DNA of 64,000 nucleotides from an uncultured Dehalococcoidia bacterium (GCA_964492335.1 CAZBJX010000011.1:878-64877), one strand, 5' to 3'. Numbered from the stretch's first letter, positions 6,497-42,971 are shown. A program made the numbers and translations. The notes: a model not told the origin generated them from the letters alone.

Positions 6497-6563
6497 CAGG
6501 TGCCCCCCGGACCCGGCCGCCGCGACGATGCCGCCGCGGGCGTTGGCCTTCCATCGCCGCCGC

Positions 6564-12801: not shown

Positions 12802-14513
12802 GCCCCCGCCCCCTTCCATCCCTGCTCCTCGAGTATGTAGAGCACCAGGTCCGGGTTGGCGTACACCTTGCTGCAGTTGGTGCTGGCTTCCATGGCGGCC
12901 GTGATCTCGGTGGCGGCCTGGGGCGAGTTGTAGTAGAAGTCCATCACTGCCCGGTCGTGGTCGCTGATGATGACGTAGCGCGGGGCGATGTCGGGGTCGC
13001 CCAGGGTGCCGAACCGCACCAGCTCGCCGTCCCTCCACTCCAGGGCGCCGTAGCCGAGGTCCTTTCCATACCGCTCGTAGTACTTCAGCGAGCCTATGGG
13101 CGCCCCGCCGATAACGTAGCCCCCCTGCGTCTTCTGGTGGAACATCTCCGCCCCGGCGAAGTACCCCGGGGAGAGGTAGTCCATGGACTGGCTCCCATAC
13201 TTGGCCACGAAGGACAGGGGAGCGGCCACCAGCAGGAACAGGCAGAGCGCCACCGCGGTGGCCCGCCCCTGCAGCAGCTTGACCCCGAAGTAGGCTATGA
13301 CGGGGAGCACGAAGACGAAGACCCGCTGGAAAAGCTCATGCAGGTAGCTCCCGCCGACGACCACGGCCGCTATCCCGCACCCGGCCACCACCGCCACCAT
13401 GGTGACGTCATGATGGGCCATCCGCTTGAACCTCCAGGCGGCGAAGGCCCCCGCAGCAGTCAGCAGCACGAACAGGCCCGAGAAGATGACCCTGGCCCCG
13501 GCCACCGCGGAGTGCGCCTCAGACCCCGTCAGCGGATTCAGCACCCCCTTCTGGGCCGCCTCATCCAGCCGGAGGGCCTGGGTCACGAACTGGCTCAGGC
13601 TCCAGTCGAAGTAGACCGCCGCCCCGTAGATGGACCACGCCCCGACGAACAGCACGGCCAGGGCCAGCAGGTTCAGGGACTTCACCCGCCTGGTGATGAA
13701 GAGCGTGCCCGTGACGGCCAGGGCCACGAAGGACCCCAGCAGGTGCGCCACGGCCGAGGCCCCGTAGATGATGATGGCCACCAGCCGCCTGCTGACGGCG
13801 CCGGGGCCCGGCTGCCAGAACCGGGGCATGGTCAGCACCGCCAGCAGGCTGAACAGGAAGAACACGCCGAAGGCCTGGGCGCCGGTATTCTGGGTCTCGA
13901 ACCAGAAGCCCAGGTAGAAGAGCCACATGGCCGCCCAGCAGTGGTTGGGGTTGGCCCGGCCGATGGTGTTGCGGAAGAGCAGGAACACGGGCAGGAACAT
14001 CAGGCACTGCCACAGGAACGGCACCCAGTCTATCAGACGGGCCAGGCCCTCCATGCTGGCCCCCGACATCTTGATCCCCATGGCCCAGAATATCCAGGCG
14101 GTGGGCCAGTTGTGCTGCCACACCGCCTTCTGGCTGAAGCTGCCGGTGCGGGTGATGAATTCGATGTACCCCATGTCGCCGTAGGCATCGGACAGGAACG
14201 GCTGCGCCCCCCCCACTATCAGCGGGGCCAGCCAGATGGAGACCACCAGGAAGGCCAGTTGCAGGAAGAGAAGCTTCCCGTGGTCCTCCCGGGAGACCCA
14301 CAGGACGGCCGAGGCCACAGTGAGGACCCCCAGGGACACGTAGAACGCGGCCGGGAAGCTGGGAAGCAGCCCCCAGAACCCGATCTGCAACCGCGCCTCG
14401 GCCACGCTCCAGGCCCACAGCGCCAGGGCGATGATGGTGAGGGCCATCGAGGCCCGGGCCGGCGCCAGGCCCTGCAGCCGCCACTCCCCGGCCCGGGCGC
14501 CCACGGCGGTCAC
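12798..14513 (-). CDS. large polytopic membrane protein (12 or more TM) with C-terminal soluble domain; candidate GT-C-type glycosyltransferase or glycan polymerase
   Basis: Hydrophobic helices throughout residues 1-420, then a soluble about 150-aa C-terminal domain. GTG at 14513 overlaps the upstream stop (GTGA); an alternative ATG at 14447. No WWDYG (AglB/PglB) motif. Function is inferred from operon context only. Confidence 0.55.
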   Translation of the reverse strand: MTAVGARAGEWRLQGLAPARASMALTIIALALWAWSVAEARLQIGFWGLLPSFPAAFYVSLGVLTVASAVLWVSREDHGKLLFLQLAFLVVSIWLAPLIVGGAQPFLSDAYGDMGYIEFITRTGSFSQKAVWQHNWPTAWIFWAMGIKMSGASMEGLARLIDWVPFLWQCLMFLPVFLLFRNTIGRANPNHCWAAMWLFYLGFWFETQNTGAQAFGVFFLFSLLAVLTMPRFWQPGPGAVSRRLVAIIIYGASAVAHLLGSFVALAVTGTLFITRRVKSLNLLALAVLFVGAWSIYGAAVYFDWSLSQFVTQALRLDEAAQKGVLNPLTGSEAHSAVAGARVIFSGLFVLLTAAGAFAAWRFKRMAHHDVTMVAVVAGCGIAAVVVGGSYLHELFQRVFVFVLPVIAYFGVKLLQGRATAVALCLFLLVAAPLSFVAKYGSQSMDYLSPGYFAGAEMFHQKTQGGYVIGGAPIGSLKYYERYGKDLGYGALEWRDGELVRFGTLGDPDIAPRYVIISDHDRAVMDFYYNSPQAATEITAAMEASTNCSKVYANPDLVLYILEEQGWKGAGA

Positions 14514-15406
14514 AGCTCTCCCCGCAGCAGGGAGAAGGTCTCGCGCGCCTGCTCCGCCCTCGAGACGCCGACCGCCACGCCGCTCAGCGACGGCAGCGCG
14601 GCCACGTAGGCCGCCGCCTCGGCCGGCTTCACGTACCCCGCCGCCAGGATGCTGAAGGCAATTACCTCCGCTCCCGGCACCTGGCGCAGGGCCTCCTCGC
14701 ACGCCTCCTTCGAGGGGCACATCTGGAAGCCCGCAGGATTGAAGGAGGCCGCCAGCGCCACGCCGCGGGGGTCGATGCCCCACTCCCGGAACCTCCTCAC
14801 CAGGTACGGCAGGTTGCGGGTCTCGAAGCCGGGCTTGACGCCGCGGCCCGACATGTACTCGATGTGGGCCTCCGCCACCCATTTCATGTCCAGCGCCAGG
14901 GCCATGTCCGTCAGCAGCTCGTGGAGCATGACGGAGGCCAGCACGCACTTCCCCCCGGCGGCAGACCTCACGCGGGAGGTCTCCAGGGAGAGGTAGCTCC
15001 GCAGCAGCGCCGCCGGGTCCCCGAAGAGCGCCCCACGGGCCCCGCTGGCCACGGCCCGCCAGTTGCCAGACGCCAAGATCTGCCGGCCCACCCCCCTGGC
15101 CAGGCCCGGCACTCCGCCGGCCCGCACCGCCATCCTGACGTACTCATAAGCATAGGGCACAATGACATAGAGCCTCAGCCCCTCCGGCTTCCTGTCCCGC
15201 ACCAGCCTCCGCAGTATGCCCAGGGTGGTCTCACTGGCGCTGAACATGAACCCGTCCGCCCCGTGGTCCAGGGCGGCGGCCACCAGGCCGGCCCCGCGCT
15301 CAGGGCTGCCCACGTCGGCCCCCCGGGAAGCAGCCCTGGCCTGCGACAGATGGCTTATCCCGTGGAAGGGGTTGTCGCCCACCAGCAGCAGCCTCTTCCC
15401 GTCCAT
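14510..15406 (-). CDS. hypothetical protein (possibly TIM-barrel enzyme), unknown function
   Basis: ATG at 15406 immediately after the upstream TAG (TAGCATG). No family recognised from sequence alone. Confidence 0.45.
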   Translation of the reverse strand: MDGKRLLLVGDNPFHGISHLSQARAASRGADVGSPERGAGLVAAALDHGADGFMFSASETTLGILRRLVRDRKPEGLRLYVIVPYAYEYVRMAVRAGGVPGLARGVGRQILASGNWRAVASGARGALFGDPAALLRSYLSLETSRVRSAAGGKCVLASVMLHELLTDMALALDMKWVAEAHIEYMSGRGVKPGFETRNLPYLVRRFREWGIDPRGVALAASFNPAGFQMCPSKEACEEALRQVPGAEVIAFSILAAGYVKPAEAAAYVAALPSLSGVAVGVSRAEQARETFSLLRGEL

Positions 15407-18843: not shown

Positions 18844-20526
18844 ATGAACATATTGGGGCTGAACTACTACTTCCATGACTCCTCGGCCTGCCTGGTGGCG
18901 GACGGGAAGATCGCCGTGGCCATCGAAGAGGAGCGGCTGACCCGCCAGAAGCACACCCACGAGTTCCCGGAGAAGGCCATCGCGCGCTGCCTGGCCATGG
19001 CCGGCCTGAAGCCCGCGGACATCGACGCGGTGGCGGTTTCCATCAAGCCCACCAAGAACTGGCCCACAAAGGCCCTCTACGCGCTGGCCCACGCGCCCCA
19101 CGCCAAGCCGTTCGTGGCGCACGAGTTGCTCCAGGGGCGCAACCGGCAGCACATGTTCTGGGACTGGTACCGGGGGACCTGGCCGCAGGGGGGCCCCAGG
19201 GTCTACTTCGTGCCCCACCACGTCGCGCATGCCGCCGGCACGTTCCTGGTCTCGCCCTACGAAGAGGCGGCCATCATCAGCCTGGACGGCTCCGGCGAGT
19301 GGTCCACCTCCTTCATCGGGCGGGGGGCCGGCACCCGGGTGGTCCCCTTCTCCGAGAGCTTCTTCCCCAACTCGCTGGGGTCCTTCTACGAGTCGGCCAC
19401 CCAGTTCTGCGGGTTCCGCCCCAACTACGACGAAGGCAAGACCATGGGACTGGCGCCGTTCGGCGACCCGGAGGTGTTCGGCAAGACAGTGGACCGCATG
19501 GTCACCGTCGATGCCGGCGGCGCCATCAAGGTGGACCTGTCCTATTTCCGGTTCCAGTACAACGAGCCGCGGCGCTTCTCCGCGAAGTTCATGGAGGCCT
19601 TCGGCCCTCCGCGCACCGGGAAGGAGTTCGGGGACAACCACAAGAACGTGGCCGCCGCCTTTCAGAAGGCCCTCGAGGACCGGGCCCTGGAGCTGTGCTC
19701 GCTGGCGAGGCAGAGGACCGGGAGCCGGCACCTCATCATCGCGGGGGGCGTGGCCCTCAACAGCGTGATGAACGGGCGCATCCTGCGCGAGGCCGGATTT
19801 GACGACATCTACGTGATGCCGGCGGCGGGAGACAACGGCACCGCCATCGGCGCCGCCTTTCACGTCTACAACAGCGTACTCAACCATCCCCGGGTGTTCG
19901 TGCACGATGATCCCTATCTGGGGACGTCCTATTCCGATGAGCAGATAGCGAGGGTGCTCAGCGGCTGCAAGCTGCGGGCCGCCCGGCAGGACGACATGGC
20001 GGCAACGGCGGCGCGGCTTCTGGCCGACGGCCAGATCCTGGGCTGGTTCCAGGGCCGCATGGAGATCGGCCCCCGGGCCCTGGGCAACCGCAGCATCCTG
20101 GCCAATCCCACCCTGCCCTACATGAAGGACAAGATCAACGCCGAGGTCAAGCACCGCGAGGCCTTCCGGCCCTTCGCCCCTTCCGTTCCGGTGGAGGACA
20201 AGGACACGTACTTCGACATCATCGGGGAAAGCCCGGTCATGCTCAAGGTCTGCCCGGTCCGCCCGGAGATGCGGCAGTTGCTCCCCGCCATCACCCATGT
20301 CGACGGCTCGGCCAGGCTCCACACCGTCACCCGGGACATCAATCCCCTCTTCCACGACCTGCTGCGCAAGTTCGGCGCCCTGACCGGGACCCCCGTGCTC
20401 CTCGACACCAGCTTCAACATCCAGGGTGAGCCGATCGTGGAGTCGCCGGAGGACGCCATCCGCTGCTTCTTCTCCACAGGCATGGACTCGCTGGCGCTGG
20501 GCAGCTTCCTCATCACCAAGGACTGA
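18844..20526 (+). CDS. NodU/CmcH family carbamoyltransferase (O-carbamoyltransferase)
   Basis: N-terminus MNILGLNYYFHDSSACLV matches the family start; conserved HHxAH (VPHHVAHAAG) and C-terminal YrdC/Kae1-like regions. An alternative ATG at 18820. Confidence 0.85.
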   Translation: MNILGLNYYFHDSSACLVADGKIAVAIEEERLTRQKHTHEFPEKAIARCLAMAGLKPADIDAVAVSIKPTKNWPTKALYALAHAPHAKPFVAHELLQGRNRQHMFWDWYRGTWPQGGPRVYFVPHHVAHAAGTFLVSPYEEAAIISLDGSGEWSTSFIGRGAGTRVVPFSESFFPNSLGSFYESATQFCGFRPNYDEGKTMGLAPFGDPEVFGKTVDRMVTVDAGGAIKVDLSYFRFQYNEPRRFSAKFMEAFGPPRTGKEFGDNHKNVAAAFQKALEDRALELCSLARQRTGSRHLIIAGGVALNSVMNGRILREAGFDDIYVMPAAGDNGTAIGAAFHVYNSVLNHPRVFVHDDPYLGTSYSDEQIARVLSGCKLRAARQDDMAATAARLLADGQILGWFQGRMEIGPRALGNRSILANPTLPYMKDKINAEVKHREAFRPFAPSVPVEDKDTYFDIIGESPVMLKVCPVRPEMRQLLPAITHVDGSARLHTVTRDINPLFHDLLRKFGALTGTPVLLDTSFNIQGEPIVESPEDAIRCFFSTGMDSLALGSFLITKD

Positions 20527-20689
20527 GCGGCGGCCCCCGCCGCGCCCGTCCCGGCCGGCGCTTCGCCGGTCAAGCCGGGGCCGGCCCCCAACAGCCTTCG
20601 TGCTCTGCTGCATGCTCCGGCGCCGCCCGGTAAGACCGAAGCTGCCCGCTGCCCGGCAGCGCCGCCCGTTGTTGCCCGGCTGCGCCGTC

Positions 20690-20730
20690 TTGACAGACCG
20701 GCCCGCCAGTAGTACATTTGTACTATAATT
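20690..20730 (+). promoter_or_regulatory. lexA promoter (TTGACA-N17-TACATT, plus downstream TATAAT) with overlapping SOS operator
   Basis: TTGACA at 20690-20695. Perfect palindrome TAGTAC-ATTT-GTACTA at 20710-20725 overlapping the -10, 25 nt upstream of the lexA ATG. Matches the RGTAC-N3-DGTWCB class of LexA boxes. Confidence 0.6.
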
Positions 20731-20750
20731 GATGCGATGAAGGCGGCGCC

Positions 20751-21416
20751 ATGGCCCGGGCATCCCTGAGACGGCAGCAGATACTGAGCTTCATCCGAGA
20801 GTTCATAGAGCGGAAGGGGTATCCCCCCACGGTGAGAGACATCCTGCGCAGCTGCCGCATCAGCTCCCCGGCGGTGGTGCAGCACCACCTCAAGGTGCTG
20901 GAGGGGCAGGGCCACATCAGCCGTGAGCCCGGCATCCGCCGCAGCATCACCCTGGCCGGCAGGCCCGGGCGCGCGGCCAGGGTCCCCCTCCTGGGGCAGA
21001 TTGCGGCGGGCCAGCCCATACCGGTGCCGCAGCCGGACTCCTGGCACGAGGAGCCCCTGGAGATGCTGGAGGTCCCGGCCGGCCTGGCCCCCGGAGGAGG
21101 CGCGCCTGCCGGCGGCGTCTACGCCCTGCAGGTGAAGGGGCAGTCCATGATCGACACCCTCATCGATGATGGCGATATCGTCATCATGCAGGCCGCCAGC
21201 ACCGTCAACAACGGTGAAACGGCGGCGGTGTGGCTCAGGGCGGAGCAGGAGGTCACCCTGAAAAGGGTCTACCGCGAGCGCGGGCGCGTCCGCCTGCAGC
21301 CGGCCAACAGCCAGATGGAGCCCACGTACCACGACCCGGAGAACGTAGAGGTCCGGGGAAGGGTCATCGGCGTCATCCGGGCCCTCGCAGGGCCGGCCCG
21401 GGCCGCCCTTCTCTAA
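20751..21416 (+). CDS. lexA: LexA repressor (S24 peptidase)
   Basis: N-terminal winged HTH (TVRDILRSCRISSPAVVQHHLKVLEGQGHI), Ala-Gly cleavage region, Ser/Lys catalytic dyad region (VKGQSMID ... LKRV). Confidence 0.9.
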   Translation: MARASLRRQQILSFIREFIERKGYPPTVRDILRSCRISSPAVVQHHLKVLEGQGHISREPGIRRSITLAGRPGRAARVPLLGQIAAGQPIPVPQPDSWHEEPLEMLEVPAGLAPGGGAPAGGVYALQVKGQSMIDTLIDDGDIVIMQAASTVNNGETAAVWLRAEQEVTLKRVYRERGRVRLQPANSQMEPTYHDPENVEVRGRVIGVIRALAGPARAALL

Positions 21417-21437
21417 GCCCGCATCCAGGAAACCAGG

Positions 21438-22655
21438 ATGGAAGTCCTCTGTCTCTTCATTCCCCACCCGCCGCCGGGGGAGGCGCGGCCCGGGGCCGCC
21501 GGCAAGCCCGGCCATCGAGATGCCGGCCCGGCGCAAGCCGCGCCGCGGCCCGTGGCCGCCGGCCCCCTCCCCGGAGAAAGCGGTGGCGCCCGGTCCTTCG
21601 AGGCGGTGCTGGACATACTGGACCGCTTCAGCCCCGCCGTGGAGGCGGGGGCCCCGGGCAAAGTGTTCCTCGACGTCACCGGCTCCCGGAAGCTGTACGG
21701 GCCCGCCGCCAGCCTGGCGGACCTGGTCACCCGGGAGGTGCTGCGGGGGTCCGGGCTCCGCTCCCGGGCCGCGGTGGCCGGCGGCAAGTTTGTGGCCGGA
21801 GTGGCCGCGCCCCTGGCCACCGCGGGCCCGCTGGTAGTGCCCCCCGGCCAGGAGAAGCAGTTCCTGGCGCCTCTCCCCGTAGAGCTTCTGCCCGTGTCCC
21901 CGCAGGCCCTGTCCTGGCTCCGGCGGCTGGGACTGCGCCGCCTGGGCCAGGTGGCCGCCCTGCCGGAGAACGCCCTGGCCGGCCAACTGGGCGCGGAAGG
22001 TGTGACCGCCTACCGCCTGGCCAGCGGGATAGACCTGGCGCCGGTGATACCCCGGCCCCGGCCGGACGTCCTGGAGGAAACGCTTTCCTTCGAGGCGCCT
22101 CCGGAGAGCCTGGGGGCCCTGCTGGCCGCCCTGGACAGGCTGCTGGACCGGCTGGTGCCCCTGCTCCGGAAGCGATACCAGGTCTGCAGCCAGATCAGGC
22201 TGTGTTTCATCCTCGATGCCGCCGCGCCCAGCGCGGCCGGCCCCGGCGCCGTCGAGCCAGGCAGAGCCCGTTCCGACGGCGTCCGGCCGCGGCCGGACAG
22301 CGTGAACCTGAAGACGCCCCTGGACTCCAAGCCCGAGATCCTGGGGGTCCTGAAACGCCACCTGGAGGCCGCCGCCTTCCCGGAAGGAATGTCCGGGGTC
22401 CGCCTGTCCCTGGCCCGGCTGGGCGGCGAGGCAGGCCGGCAGGCGCCCCTCTCATCAGCCGCCAGGAGGCGCCAGGCGGAGGCCCTGCAGCGCCTGGAGA
22501 AGGACCTGGGGGCCCGGTTCGGGCCGGGATCCCTGAAGAAGGTGGTGGCCCTGGACCCCGGCTCCCGCATACCGGAGCGCCGCATGGCCCTGGTGGACGC
22601 CGCCGTCGAGCCTCCGGGGCAAAGGGATCAGGGGCAGCCAGGGCATGGGGCATAG
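21438..22655 (+). CDS. imuB: ImuB-like inactive Y-family DNA polymerase homologue
   Basis: Y-family little-finger/thumb-like region (VFLDVTGSRKLYGP) but lacks the N-terminal catalytic acidic residues. Lies 21 nt downstream of lexA and upstream of dnaE2. Confidence 0.65.
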   Translation: MEVLCLFIPHPPPGEARPGAAGKPGHRDAGPAQAAPRPVAAGPLPGESGGARSFEAVLDILDRFSPAVEAGAPGKVFLDVTGSRKLYGPAASLADLVTREVLRGSGLRSRAAVAGGKFVAGVAAPLATAGPLVVPPGQEKQFLAPLPVELLPVSPQALSWLRRLGLRRLGQVAALPENALAGQLGAEGVTAYRLASGIDLAPVIPRPRPDVLEETLSFEAPPESLGALLAALDRLLDRLVPLLRKRYQVCSQIRLCFILDAAAPSAAGPGAVEPGRARSDGVRPRPDSVNLKTPLDSKPEILGVLKRHLEAAAFPEGMSGVRLSLARLGGEAGRQAPLSSAARRRQAEALQRLEKDLGARFGPGSLKKVVALDPGSRIPERRMALVDAAVEPPGQRDQGQPGHGA

Positions 22656-22706
22656 AGGCGCCGCGGCACAGGATCAGGAAGGCCGTACAGGAGGGGCCCG
22701 ACAGCC

Positions 22707-22955
22707 ATGGTCACGCCGCTCAATGTCCCCAGGGAGATACGCGTTGCCGCCGCCGGCGACGGCTGCCCGGTCTCCGTCCGCATCGCCGGCCGGCAGCGGC
22801 GGGTGGCCCGCATCAGCAACCAGTGGCGCATAGACGACGAGTGGTGGCGCCAGGAGATATCCCGCCGTTACTTCGAGCTGGAGCTCGGGGACGGCTTGGT
22901 GATCACCGTATTTGAGGACCTGGTCTCGGGGCGCTGGTACCAGCAAAGGCTCTAG
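22707..22955 (+). CDS. small conserved protein (82 aa) between imuB and dnaE2, unknown function
   Basis: ATG at 22707 with CAGGAGGGG RBS. Stop TAG at 22953-22955 lies 2 nt before the dnaE2 ATG. Basic/aromatic-rich sequence (WRIDDEWWRQEISRRYFELELGDG). Confidence 0.5.
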   Translation: MVTPLNVPREIRVAAAGDGCPVSVRIAGRQRRVARISNQWRIDDEWWRQEISRRYFELELGDGLVITVFEDLVSGRWYQQRL

Positions 22956-22957
22956 CC

Positions 22958-25900
22958 ATGTATGCCGAGCTGCACTGCCACAGCAACTTCTCCTTCCTGG
23001 ACGGGGCCTCCCATCCGGAGGACCTGGTCTCCCGGGCGAAGGAGCTGGGCCTGCCCGCCCTGGCCCTCACCGACCACGACGGGCTGTACGGCCTGGTCAA
23101 GTTCCGCAACGCCGCCCGGGAGCAGGGCATCAGCGCTATAACCGGCGCGGAGATGACGCTGGACGGCGGCAGCCACCTCACCCTGCTCGCCCGGGATGCC
23201 GCCGGCTACTCCAACCTCTGCCGGCTGATCAGCCACGCCCAGCTGGGCCACGGCAAGGGCCGGGCATCCCTGGACCCGGGCCTGCTGGAGAAGCACTCCG
23301 ATGGCCTCTTCTGCCTCTCCGGGTGCCGGAAGGGACAGGTCTCCCGGCTGATGCTCGCCGGCCGGAGAGAGGAGGCCGCCGCGGCCGCCCGCCGCTACCG
23401 CGGCATCTTCGGCCCCCGCTTCTACATCGAGCTGCAGAACAACCTCTGCCCCGAGGACCGGCGGCTGTGCCGCGGCCTGGCAGAGCTGGCCCGAGACCTG
23501 GGCATCGGCTGCGTGGCCACCAACAACGTGCACTACGCCCGCAGGGAAGACCACCGCCTGCAGGATGTCCTGGTCTGCATCCGCAACCGCAGCACCCTGG
23601 ATGCCTCCCACCACCTGCGGCGGCCCAACTCCGAGTGCCACCTGAAGCCCGGCCAGGAGATGGCCCGGCTCTTCAGGGACTACCCCGCGGCCCTGGCCAA
23701 CACCCTGCGGATAGCCGGGGCCTGCAGCCTCGATCTCGACCTGTCCGGCCACCGTTTCCCGGACTTCCCGGCGCCGCCGGGGGAGACCGCCGACAGCTTC
23801 CTGGAGAAGCTCTGCCGGGAGCAAGCGGCCCGGAGGTATCAGCCGCTGACGCAGGAGGTGGAGCGGCGGCTCTCCGAGGAGCTGCGCCTGGTGCGGCAGC
23901 TGGGGCTGGCCGGCTACTTCCTCACCGTGTGGGACATCATGGAATACGCCCGGGGAAACGACATCCCGGCCCAGGGCCGGGGATCGGCGGCCAGCTCCAT
24001 CGTGACCTACCTCCTGGGGGTCACCCGGGTCGACCCGGTGGCCCAGAGGCTGTTCGCCGGCCGCTTCCTCAACGACGAGATGTCGGCCATGCCGGACATA
24101 GACATAGACATCGCCTCCGACCGGGAAGACCACAGGGAGAAGCTCCTACAGTACATCTACCGCAGGCACGGGCCGGGCCAGGCGGCCATGCTGTGCAACG
24201 TGGTGACTTACCGGGCGCGCAGCGCCGTCCGGGAGGTGGGCAAGGCCATGGGCCTGCCGCCGGACCTGCTGGACCGGATGGCCCGGTCGCTGGACGCGTG
24301 CTCCGCGGTCAACATAGATGAAAGGCTGCCCGGGATGGCCGAGCTCCGGGAGGCCATGGGCTCCCGGGCCGGGGAGCAGTTCCTGGATATCTGCCGCCAG
24401 ATAGCGGGCTTCCCCCGTCACCTGGGCATTCACGTGGGGGGGATGATCATCTCCTCCAGCTCCTTGAGCGACATCGTGCCCCTGGAGAAGGCCTCCATGC
24501 CGGGCCGCGTGGTGACCCAGTGGGACAAGGACGACATCAGCGACATCGGCCTGATCAAGATCGACCTCCTGGGCCTGCGCATGCTCTCCCTCATCCACGA
24601 GGCGGTCAGGCTGGCCCGGGAAAGCGGCGGCCCCGGGGCGTCCCCGGACCTCGACCTTGACCATCTTCCCCTGGACGACCCCCGCGTCTATGACATGCTG
24701 TGCCGGGGCGACACCCTGGGCGTGTTCCAGGTGGAGTCCCGGGCCCAGCAGGCCACCCTGCCCCGCTCCCGGCCCCGCTGCTTCGAGGACCTGGTGGCCG
24801 AGGTGGCCATCATCCGCCCCGGCCCCATCCAGGGCAACGCCGTCCACCCCTACCTGGCCCGCCGCCAGGGGAAGGAGAAGGTGAGCTATCTCCACCCGGG
24901 CCTGGAGCCGGTGCTCCGGGAGACCCTGGGCGTCATCATCTACCAGGAGCAGGTGATCCAGGTGGCCATGGCCATCGCCGGCTTCACCCCCGGCCAGGCG
25001 GACTGGCTGCGCCGGGCCATGAGCCGCAAGCGCTCCCGGGAGGCCATGGAGCGCCTCCGGAGCAGCTTCCTGGAAGGCGCCCGCAGCAACGGCATAGAGG
25101 GGGCGGTGGCGGAGGCGGCCTTCCGGCAGATCGCCAGCTTCGCCGAGTTCGGCTTCTGCAAGGCCCACGCGGCGGCCCTGGCCGAGACCACCTATCGCTC
25201 CGCCTGGCTGAAGCTCTACTACCCCGGCCAATACTACTGCGCCCTGCTCAACTGCCAGCCCATGGGCTTCTACTCGCCCCACGTCATCGTCAACCAGGCC
25301 AGGCGCGAGGGGATCGGGGTGCTCCCGGCAGACATAAACCTCAGCCGGGGCCGGTGCACCCTGGAGGGAGGCGGGATCAGGCTGGGCTTTCGTTATGTCA
25401 AAACCGTGGGGGAGAAGGCCTGGCAGCGGATCGAGCAAGAGCGGGGGTCGGAGCTGCCGGCCGGGCCGTGCCCGGCCGGGCGCGAGGCGGCTGCCGGGGG
25501 CCCAGTGGCCACCCCCGGGCGCCCGTATGCCTCCCTGGAGGACTTCCTCACCCGGACCGGGCTGGACCGGGAGGCCGTGGAGAACCTCATCATGGTGGGG
25601 GCCTTCGACTCCCTCGGCACGCCCCGGCGGCAGCTGCTCTGGCAGCTGGGGGCCCTGGTGCGGCAGCCGCCCGGCGCCGTCCCGCTCCCGTGGACGGCGC
25701 CGGCAGTGGAGCTGCCCCGAATGACGCTCCGGGACAGAGTGGCCGCCGACTACCAGGTCCAGGGGCTCTCGGCCAGCCACCACCCCATGGAGGTGCTGCG
25801 CTCCGGGGTCAGCGGCAAGGTGACCCCGGCCCACGACATAGCCTCGGTCCCTTCCGGGTCCCGGGTGAGGGTGGCCGGATGCGTGGTCTGCCGACAGGCG

Positions 25901-26161
25901 CCACGCACGGCCAAAGGGCACGTCTTCCTCACCCTGGAGGACGAGACCGGGCTGGTCAATATCATCCTGCGGCCCGGGGTCTACGAGCGGTACCGCCAGG
26001 CCGCCCGGCTGGAGCCCGCCATTGTGGTGGAGGGGACCCTGCAGAAGCATGACGGCGTGGTCAACATCATAGCCCGGCGGCTCCAGCCTGTGCCCCGCCG
26101 GGACGCGCAGGAGGGGCCTCCCCCGCCGATGCCCCCCGGCCTGGCCCACGATTTCCGCTGA
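22958..26161 (+). CDS. dnaE2: error-prone DNA polymerase DnaE2 (ImuC), PolIII alpha paralogue
   Basis: N-terminal PHP domain MYAELHCHSNFSFLDGAS; full-length C-family polymerase (1067 aa) without beta/tau-binding elaboration. In a lexA-imuB cassette. Confidence 0.9.
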   Translation: MYAELHCHSNFSFLDGASHPEDLVSRAKELGLPALALTDHDGLYGLVKFRNAAREQGISAITGAEMTLDGGSHLTLLARDAAGYSNLCRLISHAQLGHGKGRASLDPGLLEKHSDGLFCLSGCRKGQVSRLMLAGRREEAAAAARRYRGIFGPRFYIELQNNLCPEDRRLCRGLAELARDLGIGCVATNNVHYARREDHRLQDVLVCIRNRSTLDASHHLRRPNSECHLKPGQEMARLFRDYPAALANTLRIAGACSLDLDLSGHRFPDFPAPPGETADSFLEKLCREQAARRYQPLTQEVERRLSEELRLVRQLGLAGYFLTVWDIMEYARGNDIPAQGRGSAASSIVTYLLGVTRVDPVAQRLFAGRFLNDEMSAMPDIDIDIASDREDHREKLLQYIYRRHGPGQAAMLCNVVTYRARSAVREVGKAMGLPPDLLDRMARSLDACSAVNIDERLPGMAELREAMGSRAGEQFLDICRQIAGFPRHLGIHVGGMIISSSSLSDIVPLEKASMPGRVVTQWDKDDISDIGLIKIDLLGLRMLSLIHEAVRLARESGGPGASPDLDLDHLPLDDPRVYDMLCRGDTLGVFQVESRAQQATLPRSRPRCFEDLVAEVAIIRPGPIQGNAVHPYLARRQGKEKVSYLHPGLEPVLRETLGVIIYQEQVIQVAMAIAGFTPGQADWLRRAMSRKRSREAMERLRSSFLEGARSNGIEGAVAEAAFRQIASFAEFGFCKAHAAALAETTYRSAWLKLYYPGQYYCALLNCQPMGFYSPHVIVNQARREGIGVLPADINLSRGRCTLEGGGIRLGFRYVKTVGEKAWQRIEQERGSELPAGPCPAGREAAAGGPVATPGRPYASLEDFLTRTGLDREAVENLIMVGAFDSLGTPRRQLLWQLGALVRQPPGAVPLPWTAPAVELPRMTLRDRVAADYQVQGLSASHHPMEVLRSGVSGKVTPAHDIASVPSGSRVRVAGCVVCRQAPRTAKGHVFLTLEDETGLVNIILRPGVYERYRQAARLEPAIVVEGTLQKHDGVVNIIARRLQPVPRRDAQEGPPPPMPPGLAHDFR

Positions 26162-26269
26162 CAAGGCGGGCCGGAGGGCAGCCGCTGTGCCTCCCGCTTC
26201 AGGCGGGGCGGCGCCGCGGCAGGGCCGGCCGTGCTAGAATCGGGCCAGGCCCCGGGGAAGACGCCGCAA

Positions 26270-27163
26270 ATGGACCAGATACTGATCGGCACCTGCTCCT
26301 GGACGGACCCCACCCTGGTCCGGTCGGGGCGCTTCTACCCGGCCGGGGCCAGGTCGGCCGAGGACAGGCTGCGGCACTACGCCAGCTGCTTCGACCTGGT
26401 GGAGGTGGACAGCAGCTACTACTCCCTGCCCGCCGAGCAGACGGCGCTGCTGTGGGCCCGGCGCACCGGCGCCGGCTTCACCTTCGACGTGAAGGCCTTC
26501 AGGCTGTTCACCCTGCACCCCACGCCGCCGACGGCCCTGCCCCGGGACATCCTGGCCTCCCTCCCCCCGGGCCTGCAGGGCAAGGCCAGCCTCTACCAGC
26601 GGGACCTGCCCCGGCCCATCACTGACGAGCTCTGGCGCCGCTTCGAAAGGGCGCTCCTCCCGCTGGACAGCGCCGGCAAGCTGGGCACCGTCCTCTTCCA
26701 GTTCCCGCCGTGGTACCTGCCCGGAGACCAGCAGCGACACTACATCCTCTCCTGCCGGGACAGGATGGCCGGGTACCGCATCGCCGTGGAGTTCCGGCAT
26801 GGCTCGTGGGTCAACGAGCAGAACCGCGAGGGGACCTTCGCCTTCCTGCAGGACAACAACCTGCCCTATGTCTGCGTGGACGGGCCCCAGGGGTTCGAGT
26901 CCAGCATGCCGGCGCTGGCCCAGGCCACCTCCGACATAGCGATGGTGCGCTTCCACGGCCGCAACCGCGACACCTGGGAGAAGCCGGGGCTGACCAGCGC
27001 CGAGCGCTTCAACTACCTCTACACTGAGGACGAGCTCGCGAGCTGGGCCCCCCGCATCAAGGGCATGGCCGAAAACGTCCGGCAGTGCCATGTCCTCTTC
27101 AACAACTGCCACGAGGACAAGGCGGTGGTCAACGCCCGCCAGATGAAGCTGCTGCTGGACTGA
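26270..27163 (+). CDS. DUF72 (YecE-like, UPF0759) family protein
   Basis: ATG at 26270 (MDQILIGTCSWTD). TAGAAT -10-like hexamer at 26236-26241. Family signature GTCSW...FHG. Confidence 0.75.
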   Translation: MDQILIGTCSWTDPTLVRSGRFYPAGARSAEDRLRHYASCFDLVEVDSSYYSLPAEQTALLWARRTGAGFTFDVKAFRLFTLHPTPPTALPRDILASLPPGLQGKASLYQRDLPRPITDELWRRFERALLPLDSAGKLGTVLFQFPPWYLPGDQQRHYILSCRDRMAGYRIAVEFRHGSWVNEQNREGTFAFLQDNNLPYVCVDGPQGFESSMPALAQATSDIAMVRFHGRNRDTWEKPGLTSAERFNYLYTEDELASWAPRIKGMAENVRQCHVLFNNCHEDKAVVNARQMKLLLD

Positions 27164-27198: not shown

Positions 27199-27999
27199 CT
27201 AGAGCGCCCGGGCCAGACGGCGCAGGAACTCCGGCATCTCTGCCGGTGAGCTCAAGAAGAAACGGGCCGCCGTCTCACGGCCGGGCCCGCCGACGAACAC
27301 CGAGACCCCCCCGCCGGCGTTCACCACCCGGAAGCCGCCTTCGTCCGTCAGATCGTCCCCCACGAAAAAGGTCACCCCGGCCGCCCGCTCTCCCGCGGGG
27401 GCCCAGCAGGCCACCAGGAGCGCTATGGCGTCTTCCTTGCCCCAGACCACGTCGGGACGCACCTCGTAGACCTTCTTCCCCTCGGTGGTCCTGATCTTGC
27501 CCCTCTCGCGCCACCCGCGGACGGTCTGCTCGCAGGTCTTCTTCAGCTCTTCGACACGGTCATCCGGCACCAGCCGGTAGTGCACGCTCAGCGTGAGGCC
27601 CTTGTCCTCAATCAGCACGCCCTCGAAGCCCTCCAGCGCCTTCCTGAGGGCCAGGTACGCCCGGTGCACAGCCGGCCTCAGGGCCTTCGCCGGAGGGTAG
27701 ACGAACTTCAGGTCCGGCCCCCTTATCTCCAGGCCATGATTGCCGGCATAGGTGATGCCTGGGAGGCCCACCCTGCTGCTTATGTCAGGGAGGGAGCGGC
27801 CGCTGATCACCGCCACCCCCACCTTCAGGTTGGAGGAGAGGGCCTGCAGCGCCAGCCTGGTGCTCTCGGGCAGGACCGCCTCTTCCGGCCGCCCGGCGAT
27901 GGGGGACAGCGTCCCGTCGAAGTCCGTCAGCAGCACCACCTGGCCGGCGCCGCCGGTGCGCCGGGCTATCCCGGGCCACGCGGAGAACAGATGGTCCAC
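27199..27999 (-). CDS. otsB: trehalose-6-phosphate phosphatase (HAD superfamily)
   Basis: HAD motif I LLTDFDGTL, motif GDDLTDE. GTG start. Located 3 nt downstream of otsA. Confidence 0.8.
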   Translation of the reverse strand: MDHLFSAWPGIARRTGGAGQVVLLTDFDGTLSPIAGRPEEAVLPESTRLALQALSSNLKVGVAVISGRSLPDISSRVGLPGITYAGNHGLEIRGPDLKFVYPPAKALRPAVHRAYLALRKALEGFEGVLIEDKGLTLSVHYRLVPDDRVEELKKTCEQTVRGWRERGKIRTTEGKKVYEVRPDVVWGKEDAIALLVACWAPAGERAAGVTFFVGDDLTDEGGFRVVNAGGGVSVFVGGPGRETAARFFLSSPAEMPEFLRRLARAL

Positions 28000-28002
28000 C
28001 CG

Positions 28003-29484
<1,482 letters not shown>

Positions 29485-29498
29485 GGTCTCCTTGCCAG

Positions 29499-30731
29499 CT
29501 AAAGATGAATCACGTCTTCCGTGTGGTCCAGCATCAGAAAGAGGAGCAGGTAATCCCTGACATGCCGGGTGATCAGGAAGTTGTGCCTGACGTGCTCCTT
29601 GCCGTTCTCCCCCAGCCATCGCGCGTAGTCCGGGTTGGACAGCAGCTGCCGGACAGCATAGGCCGTCCCTTCTATGCCATGGGACAGCAGCCCGGTCAGC
29701 TTGTGCCTCACCTGGAGGGGGATGCCGCCCACGTCCGAGGCCACCACCGGGCGCCCCTTCCACAGGGCCTCGCTCACGGTGAGGGCGAAGCCCTCCCTGA
29801 GGGACTTCTGCAGGATGACTGCGGACGCCCTCTGCAGAGCGTTGATCTCTATGTCCGACCTGGCCTGCCCTGAGATGATGTGGATGTCCGGGCGGCCGTC
29901 GGCCGCCTCCTGGACCTGCGCCAGGACCTTCTCGCCCTCCGGGTCGTCGGTGGCCCCGCCACCGATCAGGACCAGCCGGCAATCGATGGACCTCTTCACC
30001 ATCTCGTAGGCCCGGATCACGCCCACCGGGTCCTTCATGTAGTCGAACCGCGAGACCTGGGTGATGACGGGCTTGTCCCGGGGTATGCCCATCCCGGACA
30101 TGGCAGCGTCTATCTCACGGGTGGTAAGGTCCCTGTTCTTGTCGCTCAGCGGGTCTATCGACGGCGATATGAGGAACTGCCGCACGGGCAGGGGCCGGGA
30201 GAAGGCCGGGGCCGAGAACACCGTGGCGTCGTACCGGATTACGTAGCGCTCCAGGAAGCGCCACACGCGCTCGTCCGGGCTGGACACGTCGATATGGCAC
30301 CTCCAGATCCACTTCCCGCCGGCGTCCTCCTTCTTCTCGATCAGCGCGCACGGCTGGGGATCGTGTATGAACACGATCTGGCCGTGCAGGTCCATCTCCG
30401 CTATGTTCTTGCGGTTGATCTCCAGGAACAGCTCGAAGTCCTCGTCGGACAGGTCCTCCTGGCGGCCGTGCAGCGCGTTGTGGAACTTCTTGGTCACCTC
30501 GAAGAAGCCGGGGCTGCCCTTGATCACGTCCCACCGGGCATCCACTCCCAGCTCCTGGAGAATGGGCACCATGCGGTTGAGTATCTCAGCCACCCCCCCT
30601 CCCGCGAAGGTGGAGTTGATGTTCAACACCTCCCAGCCGGTCGCCTTGGAGGCCAGCAGCCGCAGTTCCTCGATAACGCTGCGGCCGACGATGGGCTCAT
30701 AGTTCGCCAGCTTCACCCAACTCCTTTTCAA
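29499..30731 (-). CDS. GT4-family glycosyltransferase, trehalose glycosyltransferring synthase (TreT)-like
   Basis: About 410 aa GT-B enzyme with a C-terminal GT4 region (EGFALTVSEALWKGRPVVASDVGGI). Size and N-terminus resemble archaeal/bacterial TreT. Sits in an operon with otsA/otsB. Confidence 0.6.
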   Translation of the reverse strand: MKRSWVKLANYEPIVGRSVIEELRLLASKATGWEVLNINSTFAGGGVAEILNRMVPILQELGVDARWDVIKGSPGFFEVTKKFHNALHGRQEDLSDEDFELFLEINRKNIAEMDLHGQIVFIHDPQPCALIEKKEDAGGKWIWRCHIDVSSPDERVWRFLERYVIRYDATVFSAPAFSRPLPVRQFLISPSIDPLSDKNRDLTTREIDAAMSGMGIPRDKPVITQVSRFDYMKDPVGVIRAYEMVKRSIDCRLVLIGGGATDDPEGEKVLAQVQEAADGRPDIHIISGQARSDIEINALQRASAVILQKSLREGFALTVSEALWKGRPVVASDVGGIPLQVRHKLTGLLSHGIEGTAYAVRQLLSNPDYARWLGENGKEHVRHNFLITRHVRDYLLLFLMLDHTEDVIHL

Positions 30732-32058
30732 TCAGTTTAATAAGGGCCCCCCGCAGGCCCTCCAGCGAGTGAGTATAGGGATCGAGCCGCGCGATCCTGT
30801 CCGCCAGCTCCTGCTCGTCCAGGCTGTCGGCCAGCCAGGCGGAGAAGTCGTTGAGCCCCTTCCCCAGCCTCAGCCTCGATTCAAAGATGTGGAAGTAGAG
30901 CGAACTGGGGCTCATCTTCCGCAGGGCCTCCACGAACTCCCTCAGGTCCCTGGCCACGTACGGCGCATGGATGATGACGCTCACGGATTTGACGAAATGG
31001 AACTCGTCGCCCGGCGCCGCCTCCCACCGCCCACCCCCCTGGGCCAGGTGCTCCTCTATGATGGAGACCAACCGCCCCCGCAGCGCCTGCAGGTTGGTGA
31101 ACTGGAAGGTGTCCACGGCCGCCAGCTTCTCCGCCAGCACATCGTCGCCAAGCGCGTCGTCCACCCACAAGGCCAGGTCATTGGCCGGCTGCGGGGTCAG
31201 GTAGTGGTGCTCCTCCAGGAAATGGTGCGTGTGGTAGTAGATGACAGCCTCGGGCACCACCTTAAGCATGTCGGCCATCTCCCGCAGAGCGCCGGCCTTC
31301 AGGCCCGTCAGCTCCTTCATGTGCGACCGGGAGTAGAAATCGAAGGGCTTCCTGGCCTTCTTGATCGGCAGGCCATAGTTGATGACCGTGCTCTGCGCCA
31401 TCTTCCTGTTCGGTATGATGGTCACCGCCCCGGTCGACCCCGTGACCATGACGCTGCGCCAGTTCATGCCGGTGACGTAGCCTTCCTCGCCGCTCTCCTT
31501 GATCCTGATGTAGTCGCCGCTCTTGAAGTGCCGCATCGAGCCGACCTGCAGCCCGGCCACCAGGTCCGGCCCGATGTCCCTCATGATGAGGATCGCCAGC
31601 AGGGCCAGGATGCCCATGGCCAGGAGTATGGCGGCCAGGTTGGCCCCCCATATCTCCAGCACGCTCAGGAGAGTCACCACCACCACCACGATGCGTACCA
31701 GGTACCGGAAGGCCCTGGTGTCGCGGTCGGGGGCCTTCAGGTGATCTCCCCAGAGGGAGACCAGCCTGTCGGACATGGAGAGGAGGGCCAGGGCCAGGGA
31801 GAGCACGAAGACGGTCCACAGCCCCTTGCTGACATAGAGCATCCACTCCGACCCCCCGCTGCGGGTGGCAATGGTATATACCAGGATGCCCATCCACGCA
31901 CCCGCCGCCAGCGCCCAGAGCATCGAAGGGAAGCGGGTCGTGTCGCGGAGGATGTCGAAGCCCTTCCACCCGGTCTCCCTGGACCACCTCTGCAGCCACC
32001 CCCGCGCCAGTTGCCTCAGCCAGAGGCAGGCAATAGAGCCTGCCAGGCCCACCGCCAC
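30697..32058 (-). CDS. MscS-family mechanosensitive channel with an about 230-aa C-terminal extension domain
   Basis: Three TM helices plus MscS beta-domain (VGSMRHFKSGDYIRIKESGEEGYVTGMNWRSVMVTGSTGAVTIIPNRKM). Long C-terminal His-rich domain of unknown family. GTG start with AGGAG upstream. Confidence 0.7.
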   Translation of the reverse strand: MAVGLAGSIACLWLRQLARGWLQRWSRETGWKGFDILRDTTRFPSMLWALAAGAWMGILVYTIATRSGGSEWMLYVSKGLWTVFVLSLALALLSMSDRLVSLWGDHLKAPDRDTRAFRYLVRIVVVVVTLLSVLEIWGANLAAILLAMGILALLAILIMRDIGPDLVAGLQVGSMRHFKSGDYIRIKESGEEGYVTGMNWRSVMVTGSTGAVTIIPNRKMAQSTVINYGLPIKKARKPFDFYSRSHMKELTGLKAGALREMADMLKVVPEAVIYYHTHHFLEEHHYLTPQPANDLALWVDDALGDDVLAEKLAAVDTFQFTNLQALRGRLVSIIEEHLAQGGGRWEAAPGDEFHFVKSVSVIIHAPYVARDLREFVEALRKMSPSSLYFHIFESRLRLGKGLNDFSAWLADSLDEQELADRIARLDPYTHSLEGLRGALIKLIEKELGEAGEL

Positions 32059-32134
32059 TGCCAGAAGTATCTCCTGGTTGCTTCTCAGCCAGTCTACGTC
32101 GCACCCCTACCGGGAAACAGGGCCGCAGCGCGCG

Positions 32135-33757
32135 TCACTTCGGCTCCCTCTTCCCCTCTCCTATCACGAAGGCGATGATATCGCTGCTCGTCAAAGACCC
32201 CAGAAGCTCCCCGGTGGACCGGTCGACCACCGGGACCACCGTCACGCCGGAGTCTGCCATGCGCCGGGTCACGTCATCCAGCATCTCGTCGGGCACCGCC
32301 ACCATGGGCTCATACTCCAGCAGCTCGTGCAGGACCACGCTGCCCCAGCGGTCCTTGTCTATATGACGGATATCCTTGAGGTACAGCACCCCGGCCAGTT
32401 TGCCCGGCTCTTCCATGATCACATAGTCCGACTGGTCGGGGACCGCCCAGTAGTCTATGAAGTCCTGTATGGTGATGACGAAGGACGGGAACTGCCGTCC
32501 CCTATCCATTATATCCAGCACCGTCTTATTGTCCAGAGCATACCGGGCAAACGACGGCACCACGAACCAGGGCACCCTCTCCTTCCTCCCGGCCGGGGCG
32601 CGCCCGGCCCGCCCGATGGCCAGGCCCATTGCCGGCGGTGCAATGAGAAGGTACCCGACCATGATCAGGACCAGCAGAGAGAACAGCTCCTGCGGCACGG
32701 CCCCGATGTCCAGCAAGACCAGCAGCAGGGCGATCTCCACCACCCCCTTCCCCATGATGCCCGAGGCAATGGCCAGGGGACGGTCCAGCCGGGCCACCGT
32801 CACCCCCGACAGGGCGCCGGCGAACTTGCCCAGAACGGCCACCGCCACTACGGCCTCCAGGGACCACACAGGCAGCTCCCCGAACGACAGGTCCAGGTGT
32901 ATCCCCGCCGACGCGAAGAACAGCGGGATGAAGAGACCGTAGGCCAGGCCCCGCACGCCGGGCAGGATCTCGGCCCGCAGGCGGTAAGGCAGCCCGGACA
33001 GCGAGACCCCCAGCAGGAGGGCTCCCAGCGAGCCGTGCATCCCGATCCTGTCCACCAGGCCCACGAGCAGCAGCAGGCCGCCGGTAACCAGGCCCATGGC
33101 CAGCTGCGGCGCACCTATGACGCGGCGCAGCCAGGCCACCAGCCGGGGAAAGACCTTGCTGGCCAGCAGCCACGAGGCCACCGCCACCGCCACCACCTCG
33201 GCCAGCAGGATGGGCAGGGTCCACCAAGTGAAGGGGTCTTTCCCGGTGATGTTTCTGATGGCCAGGGAGACCACCAGGAGCCCCACGATCTCCAGGATCA
33301 CCACGGTGGTGAAGACCTCCAGGCCGACCGGCTCCCTGAGGCGCCCCAGGTCGCTGAGCACCTTGGCCACCACCCCCAGGCTGGAGAGCGACAGGATGCC
33401 CCCCACGGCGATGGCGCTTCCCACGGGCAGGTCCACCACCGCCACCATGACCACCGTGGCCAGTGCGAAGGACACCAGGAAGCCCACCGTCCCGGCCACG
33501 AAGAACCGGCCCCTCAAGGTGGCCGCCAGCCCCGTCACATCCATTTCCTCCACCCCGATGAGGAAGAACAGGAACACCACCCCGATGCCGAAGAAGAGCT
33601 CCAGGTCCCGGGTGGCCTCCACCACGCCCAGGACCGGCCCCAGGAGGATGCCGGCGGCCACGTAGGCCACCAGGGCGCTCTGGCGCAGCCGGGTGACCAC
33701 GCCCTCCAGGAGCTTGGCAACTATCAGCAGCAGGCCAAGAGATATGAGCAGGTCCAT
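32135..33757 (-). CDS. cation:proton antiporter (CPA2/Kef-type) with C-terminal CBS pair
   Basis: 12-13 TM Na/H-exchanger-like core, followed by two CBS-like motifs (VLDIMDRGRQFPSFVITIQ...; VTVVPVVDRSTGELLGSLTSSDII). Confidence 0.85.
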   Translation of the reverse strand: MDLLISLGLLLIVAKLLEGVVTRLRQSALVAYVAAGILLGPVLGVVEATRDLELFFGIGVVFLFFLIGVEEMDVTGLAATLRGRFFVAGTVGFLVSFALATVVMVAVVDLPVGSAIAVGGILSLSSLGVVAKVLSDLGRLREPVGLEVFTTVVILEIVGLLVVSLAIRNITGKDPFTWWTLPILLAEVVAVAVASWLLASKVFPRLVAWLRRVIGAPQLAMGLVTGGLLLLVGLVDRIGMHGSLGALLLGVSLSGLPYRLRAEILPGVRGLAYGLFIPLFFASAGIHLDLSFGELPVWSLEAVVAVAVLGKFAGALSGVTVARLDRPLAIASGIMGKGVVEIALLLVLLDIGAVPQELFSLLVLIMVGYLLIAPPAMGLAIGRAGRAPAGRKERVPWFVVPSFARYALDNKTVLDIMDRGRQFPSFVITIQDFIDYWAVPDQSDYVIMEEPGKLAGVLYLKDIRHIDKDRWGSVVLHELLEYEPMVAVPDEMLDDVTRRMADSGVTVVPVVDRSTGELLGSLTSSDIIAFVIGEGKREPK

Positions 33758-33865
33758 GAGCTTGGCTCCCGGCCCGGGGCAGGGACCGGCGACAGACGGC
33801 GGACAGGCTCAGCCGGGAGGGACGGAACAGCCGATGGACACGGCTGAAGGGCCGGGCGACGCCGA

Positions 33866-34339: not shown

Positions 34340-34500
34340 CGTCACTCTCCTCCTTCTCCGGGCCGGCCATTGCGCGCCCCGGGGCATTCGCTGGCTTCCT
34401 CCCGGCGCGGACCGCAGGTGTAGTGTAAGCTAGCACCCGCCTCCCGGCCAAGTCAAGGCCCCGGCCCTCACGCGGCGGGATGCCGGGAGGGGACGAGCCG

Positions 34501-35496: not shown

Positions 35497-35587
35497 CTGA
35501 CTCTGCACCCCGCCGCGCAGCACCATGGCTTCGACAACGCGCTCCGCTGCCGGGACATGCGCCGCCCCGCCCCCGGCGGCTCCGGCC

Positions 35588-42967: not shown

Positions 42968-42971
42968 CAGC

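Follow-up and report, generated by a model that had tools for sequence, protein, structure and literature searches.

Positions 20,690–26,161 of a 64,000-nucleotide (nt) stretch of DNA from an uncultured Dehalococcoidia bacterium (GCA_964492335.1 CAZBJX010000011.1:878-64877; this whole stretch is referred to below as the window) very probably hold an SOS-regulated lexA-imuY-imuB-C-dnaE2 operon for mutagenesis. In it, an inactive Y-family polymerase (iPolY, or ImuY) and a small protein corresponding to the ImuB-C domain would together form a split ImuB. The four genes, namely lexA, the Y-family homologue, an open reading frame (ORF) of 82 amino acids (aa) and dnaE2, are arranged head to tail on the same strand with spacers of 21, 51 and 2 nt. 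Their coordinates, with those of the promoter, the predicted operator and the protein motifs discussed below, are collected in Table 1.

Table 1. Genes, regulatory sites and iPolY elements of the cassette, numbered from the first letter of the window
Feature	Position	Strand	Basis
-35 hexamer TTGACA	20690–20695	+	consensus scan; CTTGACA present without exception upstream in seven orthologous loci
Predicted LexA operator TAGTAC-ATTT-GTACTA, core GTAC-N4-GTAC	20710–20725	.	position, symmetry, resemblance
-10 hexamer TACATT, 17-nt spacer, within operator	20713–20718	+	consensus scan
lexA, autocleavable repressor, 221 aa	20751–21416	+	TIGR00498, LexA_DNA_bind, Peptidase_S24
Inactive Y-family polymerase (iPolY/ImuY; N-terminal part of split ImuB), 405 aa	21438–22655	+	partial IMS/DinB matches from aa 55
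P/A/G-rich low-complexity stretch replacing fingers segment, iPolY aa 14–50	21477–21587	+	homologue alignment
Degenerate beta-clamp-binding-like motif QAPLSS, iPolY aa 335–340	22440–22457	+	homologue alignment
RecA-NT-like motif RRRQAEALQRLEKDLGARFGPGSLKKVV	22464–22547	+	conserved across iPolY family
Conserved C-terminal tail ALDPGSRIPERRMAL	22548–22592	+	SRIPERR nearly invariant in 75 homologues
82-aa ORF (orf82), predicted ImuB-C	22707–22955	+	113 homologues; hhalign vs. ImuB C-termini; all-beta AF2 model
dnaE2, error-prone C-family polymerase, 1067 aa	22958–26161	+	NF004225; PHP, DNA_pol3_alpha, finger, HhH, OB domains

The 82-aa protein, iPolY and the missing imuA

The 82-aa ORF (orf82) has a third-codon-position GC content (GC3) of 0.89, like the real genes of the window, and its relatives, mostly 80–100 aa long, fall into 113 protein clusters. 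Homologues were found at no fewer than 562 loci in species-representative genomes of Chloroflexota and Gemmatimonadota. Invariant in this family are the motif W-R-I-D-D-E-W-W-R and the residues R53, Y55, D71, W77 and Q80; the invariance of W77, R41, R48 and R53 fits the conserved C-terminal Trp and basic residues that characterize ImuB-C (Aravind 2013). Synteny was followed in a sample of 80 fetched loci with an orf82 homologue. An iPolY homologue was located immediately upstream in 74 of these loci, and dnaE2 immediately downstream on the same strand in 48, with nine more loci carrying dnaE2 elsewhere.

Searches of Pfam and NCBIfam at default thresholds gave no match for orf82. When hits up to E 10 were admitted, Pfam DUF6504 (PF20114) was recovered with 16.2 bits (E 0.013), which is below the gathering score of 24.2, so the family membership of the protein rests on the profile-profile comparisons described here. 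Three of its relatives (P0083, P0088 and P0097) do pass the DUF6504 threshold, with 25.6–29.3 bits. The same model matches aa 428–502 of a canonical 505-aa ImuB encoded beside imuA and dnaE2 on an Agrobacterium vitis plasmid; under the name DUF6504 nothing was found in the literature. In hhalign, the orf82 family profile aligned with the A. vitis ImuB over aa 412–502 (93%, E 3e-7) and, over its full length, with six canonical ImuB C-termini (98.1%, E 6.4e-14). A small alignment of ImuB C-termini was needed for this result: the match to Thermomicrobium roseum ImuB alone was weak, and that to B. glumae ImuB alone was not significant. Against ImuA and the RecA-like ImuA' of T. roseum the probability was 0.1–0.2%.

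The AlphaFold2 (AF2) model of the 82-aa protein is an all-beta structure of six strands (predicted local distance difference test score 88.6). A Foldseek search of the PDB with this model returned nothing better than E 0.8, and the family profile gave only noise against PDB sequences (a de novo TIM barrel; PA4535/DUF1780, E 0.29). A model with no PDB neighbour agrees with the published ImuB-C beta-barrel, a fold unseen in the PDB (PMC12926913). By these profile and model comparisons, the 82-aa ORF encodes a free-standing ImuB-C domain, and in annotation imuB-C is the name to give to small ORFs labelled 'hypothetical' that lie between dnaE2 and a DinB-like gene.

In the upstream neighbour of orf82, the match to the Pfam IMS model does not begin until profile position 77, coverage by DinB/IMS models starting at about model position 80. 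The catalytic D-E pair reads G-K, with DinB 'LDEAYLDVT' aligning to 'PGKVFLDVT', and the N-terminal DxD region reads 'LCLFIPH', the acidic motif being missing. With these carboxylates lost, the protein is predicted to be catalytically dead. The fingers segment is intact in L003, L004, L005, L087 and L088, while the window, L001 and L002 have a P/A/G-rich filler of variable length in its place. At the other end, the alignment of iPolY with DinB models extends as far as model position 287 of 399, and the retained region would, by inference from this alignment, take in the thumb and some of the little finger. Large deletions are tolerated in ImuB proteins provided that the thumb, the little finger and ImuB-C remain (PMC12926913), and the loss of the fingers fits this published tolerance.

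Three C-terminal elements are conserved across 75 iPolY homologues: a clamp-binding-like motif, a RecA-NT-like motif and an SRIPERR tail. Residues 343–385 of the window protein are in register with the motif and tail strings published for the iPolY of Dehalogenimonas, Sphaerobacter and Conexibacter (Timinskas 2019, Table S4). The clamp-like column, which is Q..LF/W in most homologues, reads QAPLSS, QTLLSS or QAPLST in the clade of the window, where clamp tethering may be weakened or shifted elsewhere. The protein ends about 20 aa after its 'DPGSRIPERR' tail, and fused ImuB proteins run about 90 aa further, into ImuB-C. Because iPolY stops exactly where the fused proteins continue into the domain assigned to orf82, the two products are taken, from their sequences, to be a split ImuB.

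The outer genes of the cassette gave family matches. LexA scored 156 bits with TIGR00498 (cutoff 111), and both the helix-turn-helix (LexA_DNA_bind) and the S24 peptidase domains were found. It carries AAG at aa 85–87, the Ser of GQSM at aa 132 and the Lys of LKRV at aa 171, which we take, by analogy with E. coli LexA, to be the Ala-Gly cleavage site and the Ser132 and Lys171 active-site residues. DnaE2 scored 1134 bits with NF004225 'error-prone DNA polymerase' (cutoff 939), and its domains are intact. Upstream of iPolY stands lexA, not imuA or imuA'. Searches by tblastn with two ImuA queries and one RecA-like ImuA' query were negative throughout the window and the 80 related loci, and Pfam scans of about 46 ORFs of the window revealed no RecA-fold protein. 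RecA is the proposed stand-in, and by analogy with the published systems it may replace ImuA, because PolY carries the RecA-NT-like motif (Timinskas & Venclovas 2019).

An earlier note, made from the sequence of the window, had described the same gene order, and its coordinates and gaps proved correct throughout; its reading of the ImuB-like protein as catalytically dead agrees with the predicted effect of the G-K replacement in 'PGKVFLDVTG', and its statement that no RecA-fold imuA is present was borne out by the searches just described. For the small ORF it had offered two origins and suggested a profile comparison with ImuA, ImuA' and the ImuB C-terminus. That comparison matched ImuB-C and neither form of ImuA, so that the detached C-terminal domain was upheld and the novel subunit replacing ImuA was not.

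The first of these origins, in which the 82-aa protein is a new accessory subunit that has assumed the role of ImuA, draws on the failure to find imuA in the window or the 80 loci and on the strong conservation of an ORF inside the cassette. The protein is, however, homologous over its full length to ImuB-C, which occurs together with ImuA in canonical cassettes, and it is for this reason not a replacement for ImuA. The negligible hhalign probabilities for ImuA and ImuA', the predicted all-beta domain in place of a RecA fold, and the RecA-NT-like motif kept in iPolY, which points to RecA as the stand-in, all speak against such a subunit, and we regard it as very improbable. Still harder to credit is that imuB and orf82 are one canonical imuB broken recently by a frameshift, a nonsense mutation or an assembly error, even though the two ORFs jointly reproduce the ImuB domain order. 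The small gene has its own start codon, an upstream AGGAGG, a conserved N-terminus (MVTPLN.PR) and a 51-nt spacer before it; independent assemblies also give separate gene calls, and the literature describes the split form as a stable type. A frameshift or pseudogene was rejected on conservation, given a separate 80–100-aa gene in 113 clusters and across both phyla.

The promoter and the predicted LexA operator

TTGACA-17-TACATT is the sole promoter-like site, of sigma-70-like type, in positions 20400–26500, which places the -10 inside the palindrome. TACATT with a 17-nt spacer is found also in L001 and L003–L005, and in L087 the spacer is 18 nt. The hexamer TATAAT at 20724–20729 was considered as the -10 and rejected, as it lies 28 nt from the -35 and orthologous loci do not have it. 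The palindrome TAGTAC-ATTT-GTACTA occurs as a single copy in the window, and none of 100 shuffles had one. Its core, GTACATTTGTAC, is identical in L001, L003, L004, L005 and L087, with divergent flanks. In total, six related loci have kept the GTAC operator. In seven loci with LexA proteins 62–86% identical to that of the window, CTTGACA and GTACA.TTGT.C are invariant upstream of lexA and the flanks have diverged. Conservation is equally good in the right arm, GTAC(T/C), which the -10 does not reach.

The window site matches both cyanobacterial LexA consensus strings, AGTACWNWTGTACT and RGTACNNNDGTWCB, letter for letter; both are fitted exactly by AGTACATTTGTACT at positions 20711–20724. The host, however, is not a cyanobacterium, and its relatives use GAAC-N4-GTTC or hybrid sites. 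With the Gram-positive/Dehalococcoides-type box CGAACN4GTTCG (AGAAC-N4-GTTCT) the window site shares the 4-4-4 geometry and the outer bases (TAG.AC ... G..CTA), and it differs from it by one base per half-site, T for A at the third position. Dehalococcoides LexA reportedly binds the Gram-positive box.

Among L006–L080, about 33 Chloroflexota loci with an iPolY-ImuB-C cassette and no adjacent lexA carry a perfect TAGAAC-N4-GTTCTA about 25 nt upstream of iPolY, and in the Gemmatimonadota cassette loci of that set neither a GAAC nor a GTAC box was seen. The cassette-linked locus L088 has a hybrid, TAGTAC-ACTT-GTTCTA, over the -10 and a pure GAAC box in addition. L084 and L089, which represent one syntenic locus in two assemblies, hold a stand-alone lexA outside any cassette, 60–61% identical; it too carries GTAC boxes, of which one lies clear of the -10. 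Mixed or AAAC/GAAC-like sites were found in L085, L086 and L090. Because the sister cassettes of Chloroflexota carry TAGAAC-N4-GTTCTA and relatives have GTAC/GTTC hybrids, the predicted GTAC box is a clade-level one-base variant of the Gram-positive-like TAGAAC-N4-GTTCTA box. The embedded TACATT partly explains the GTAC form, as the first T of the half-site also serves the -10.

Since relatives use GAAC-N4-GTTC or hybrids, parallel drift inside the Gram-positive-like family of boxes is the best account of the cyanobacterial likeness of the predicted box, and this likeness is no evidence of a cyanobacterial connection. No cyanobacterial LexA was found among the 120 homologues listed (the best 120 of 5675 matches, all at least 58% identical); those of them that are named come from Chloroflexi or Dehalococcoidia. 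The earlier note had the palindrome overlapping the -10 of a single promoter; the overlap stands, with the -10 corrected to TACATT, inside the palindrome. Its assignment of the site to the GTAC operator class was right to the letter, while its view of that class as unexpected here did not survive the finding of TAGAAC-N4-GTTCTA at the same cassette in other Chloroflexota and of hybrids in relatives. No second GTAC- or GAAC-type box was present in the 64 kb of the window, and for that reason no regulon can be inferred from it.

Two other explanations of the palindrome and its LexA have to be weighed. The site could be promoter sequence only, or belong to another regulator; because its central TACATT doubles as the -10, part of its conservation could indeed be promoter-driven. 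This does not account for the equally conserved right arm, and the 4+4+4 geometry of the GAAC-N4-GTTC family, the fit to the published cyanobacterial LexA consensus, the placement where autoregulated lexA genes have their box, and the perfect TAGAAC-N4-GTTCTA at the equivalent position upstream of the cassette in sister loci make such a site improbable.

Under the other explanation, a housekeeping LexA encoded elsewhere would use GAAC-N4-GTTC, and the LexA of the cassette would be an additional, dedicated paralogue with a GTAC operator of its own. Pseudomonas putida cassettes have a dedicated LexA2. Here, lexA adjoins the cassette only in the clade of the window (the five closest of the 80 loci, plus L087 and L088), most of these lexA-containing loci carry GTAC boxes, the lexA-less Chloroflexota cassettes carry the GAAC form, and the window holds no other box of either kind. 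A private operator is difficult to reconcile with the stand-alone lexA of L084/L089, which also has GTAC boxes, one of them where no -10 would demand it, or with the hybrid and pure GAAC sites of cassette-linked L088. The LexA proteins compared, cassette-linked and stand-alone, hardly differ in their predicted recognition helices, and the pattern looks like drift of one LexA lineage in which lexA and cassette are sometimes adjacent. We consider a dedicated paralogue unlikely, though it keeps some weight, and prefer a single drifting LexA lineage.

Published systems and a proposed mechanism

The domain ImuB-C was defined by Aravind 2013 (PMC3765255), where solo ImuB-C proteins were noted in DnaE2 operons with an inactive DinB. 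Inactive PolY, standalone ImuB-C and DnaE2, often with lexA, were later described in genomes without imuA (Timinskas & Venclovas 2019, PMC6511836); Table S4 of that paper gives 'LexA->iPolY->ImuB-C->DnaE2' as the gene order in Deinococcus deserti and in a member of the Dehalococcoidia (Chloroflexi), Dehalogenimonas lykanthroporepellens. A 2026 survey in Nucleic Acids Research (PMC12926913) names the type DnaE2X-iPolY-ImuB-C-RecA, a split ImuB, and suggests that it is ancestral to the widespread ImuA-ImuB-DnaE2. The cassette is another example of this already published system, from an uncultured Chloroflexota, and the novelty implied by the earlier note does not hold, since an imuA-less cassette with a standalone ImuB-C was on record for a Dehalococcoidia genome and for Deinococcus.

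The closest experimental parallel is the operon of D. deserti, which agrees with the window in its four genes and in their order, with lexA first, a gene for an ImuB-C of about 80 aa between imuY and dnaE2, and no imuA; the '80-residue hypothetical protein' at that place is ImuB-C. This lexA-imuY-imuB-C-dnaE2 operon is radiation-induced, RecAC being needed for its induction, its LexA is cleaved in vitro, and ultraviolet mutagenesis requires ImuY, DnaE2 and RecAC (PMC8072749). Deinococcus belongs to another phylum, the window iPolY additionally lacks the fingers segment and the clamp-motif aromatic, and function is experimental in Deinococcus only. The iPolY-ImuB-C-DnaE2 systems of Kyrpidia tusciae, D. 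lykanthroporepellens and Sphaerobacter thermophilus have the same architecture as the window, with a RecA-NT-like motif followed by a (D/E)PxSRIPERR tail as in its iPolY, and the Dehalogenimonas gene order is identical. Compared with these representatives, the window comes from another lineage, high in GC and Dehalococcoidia-like.

The canonical ImuA-ImuB-DnaE2 mutasome likewise joins DnaE2 to an ImuB-C domain and a catalytically dead scaffold of the Y family under SOS control, and the proposed working principle is the same. There, however, ImuB-C is fused to ImuB and the RecA-like ImuA is required, whereas in the window ImuB is split and ImuA was not found. The fused form is present in the Chloroflexota-related genome of T. 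roseum, unlike in the window: positions 3703–9168 of its megaplasmid NC_011961 (L081) hold a RecA-like gene (357 aa), a fused ImuB and ImuB-C (416 aa, annotated as hypothetical) and dnaE2. DNA polymerase V (Pol V) is also an SOS-induced, multi-subunit error-prone polymerase; its Y-family protein has a RecA-NT-like motif by which it binds RecA, and a C-terminal tail to which a small beta-rich subunit is bound. Its Y-family subunit is an active polymerase, whereas that of the window is predicted to be dead, with synthesis left to the C-family polymerase, and the ImuB-C fold is not SH3-like or UmuD-like.

A mechanism can be proposed whose steps are drawn from published work on relatives. LexA would occupy the operator and block the -10 until, upon DNA damage, RecA filaments trigger its self-cleavage and the operon is expressed. 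iPolY would then serve as the scaffold. ImuB-C, which in published AlphaFold models sits on the PHP domain of DnaE2 with a fold unseen in the PDB (PMC12926913), would bind that domain; the RecA-NT-like motif would recruit RecA in place of the missing ImuA, and DnaE2 would carry out error-prone lesion bypass.

Several points weigh against reading the region as an SOS-regulated operon with a split ImuB that works in this way. The operon of this organism is known from sequence and models, and the assignment of the putative operator to LexA rests on position, symmetry and resemblance. The 82-aa protein itself stays under the DUF6504 gathering score (16.2 vs. 24.2 bits). The absence of imuA is established for 64 kb and the flanks of related loci, which is less than a whole genome, and replacement of ImuA by RecA, or by anything else, is unproven even in Deinococcus. 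Because the clade of the window has lost the aromatic residue of the motif (QAPLSS), clamp tethering through iPolY appears doubtful here.

Two points are modestly new: the series of operators running from GAAC to GTAC, and the additional decay that the scaffold has undergone in one subclade. We tentatively suggest that, within one Dehalococcoidia-like group of Chloroflexota, the operator shifted from TAGAAC-N4-GTTCTA through the hybrid TAGTAC-N4-GTTCTA to a symmetric (T/G)(A/G)GTAC-N4-GTAC, and that the same subclade lost the iPolY fingers and the clamp-motif aromatic; on present evidence this joint history is possible but doubtful. What started the shift may have been that the lexA operator had to accommodate a -10 hexamer of the form TAC...T. 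If true, the shift runs parallel to the change by which the SOS boxes of cyanobacteria and Gram-positive bacteria differ. The scaffold losses hint that RecA and/or ImuB-C, and not the beta clamp, may bring the mutasome to the fork. The GAAC, hybrid and GTAC boxes of close relatives are a possible natural test set for LexA-operator co-evolution. For mutagenesis the locus raises no new question; it adds a clean uncultured-Chloroflexota case to the split-ImuB class (iPolY, ImuB-C and DnaE2, no ImuA).

Neighbouring genes

The operon is flanked by polysaccharide-synthesis genes upstream and by trehalose and osmotic-stress genes downstream. Next after dnaE2, across a gap of 69 nt without a predicted terminator, comes a DUF72 gene (26231–27163, +), and the order dnaE2, DUF72 recurs in L004, L005, L018 and L087; the gene may be a conserved fifth member of the cassette in this clade, or merely a stable neighbour. 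On the opposite strand, positions 27199–34387 (-) hold an osmotic-stress run of a trehalose-phosphatase, a trehalose-6-phosphate synthase, a TreT-like trehalose synthase, an MscS-DUF5752 protein, a CBS-domain Na+/H+ exchanger and Usp. The trehalose-6-phosphate synthase ORF has an R/G/P-rich N-terminal extension of 186 aa; as this extension is implausible, the true start lies probably further downstream.

Inside the glycosyltransferase and polysaccharide clusters are two ORFs of 716 aa (12798–14948, -) and 659 aa (42954–44933, +) with coding-like GC3, for which Pfam gave no match. The protein encoded at 49793–51667 (+) combines Ig-like domains (He_PIG, Big_9) with a dockerin type I domain at its C-terminus; dockerins are unusual in Chloroflexota. 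The contig is bacterial, and it also encodes a DUF1616 protein (67–927, +) and an NrpR-type regulator (HTH_12 and NRD1_2; 34501–35526, -), both of which belong to families that are mainly archaeal.

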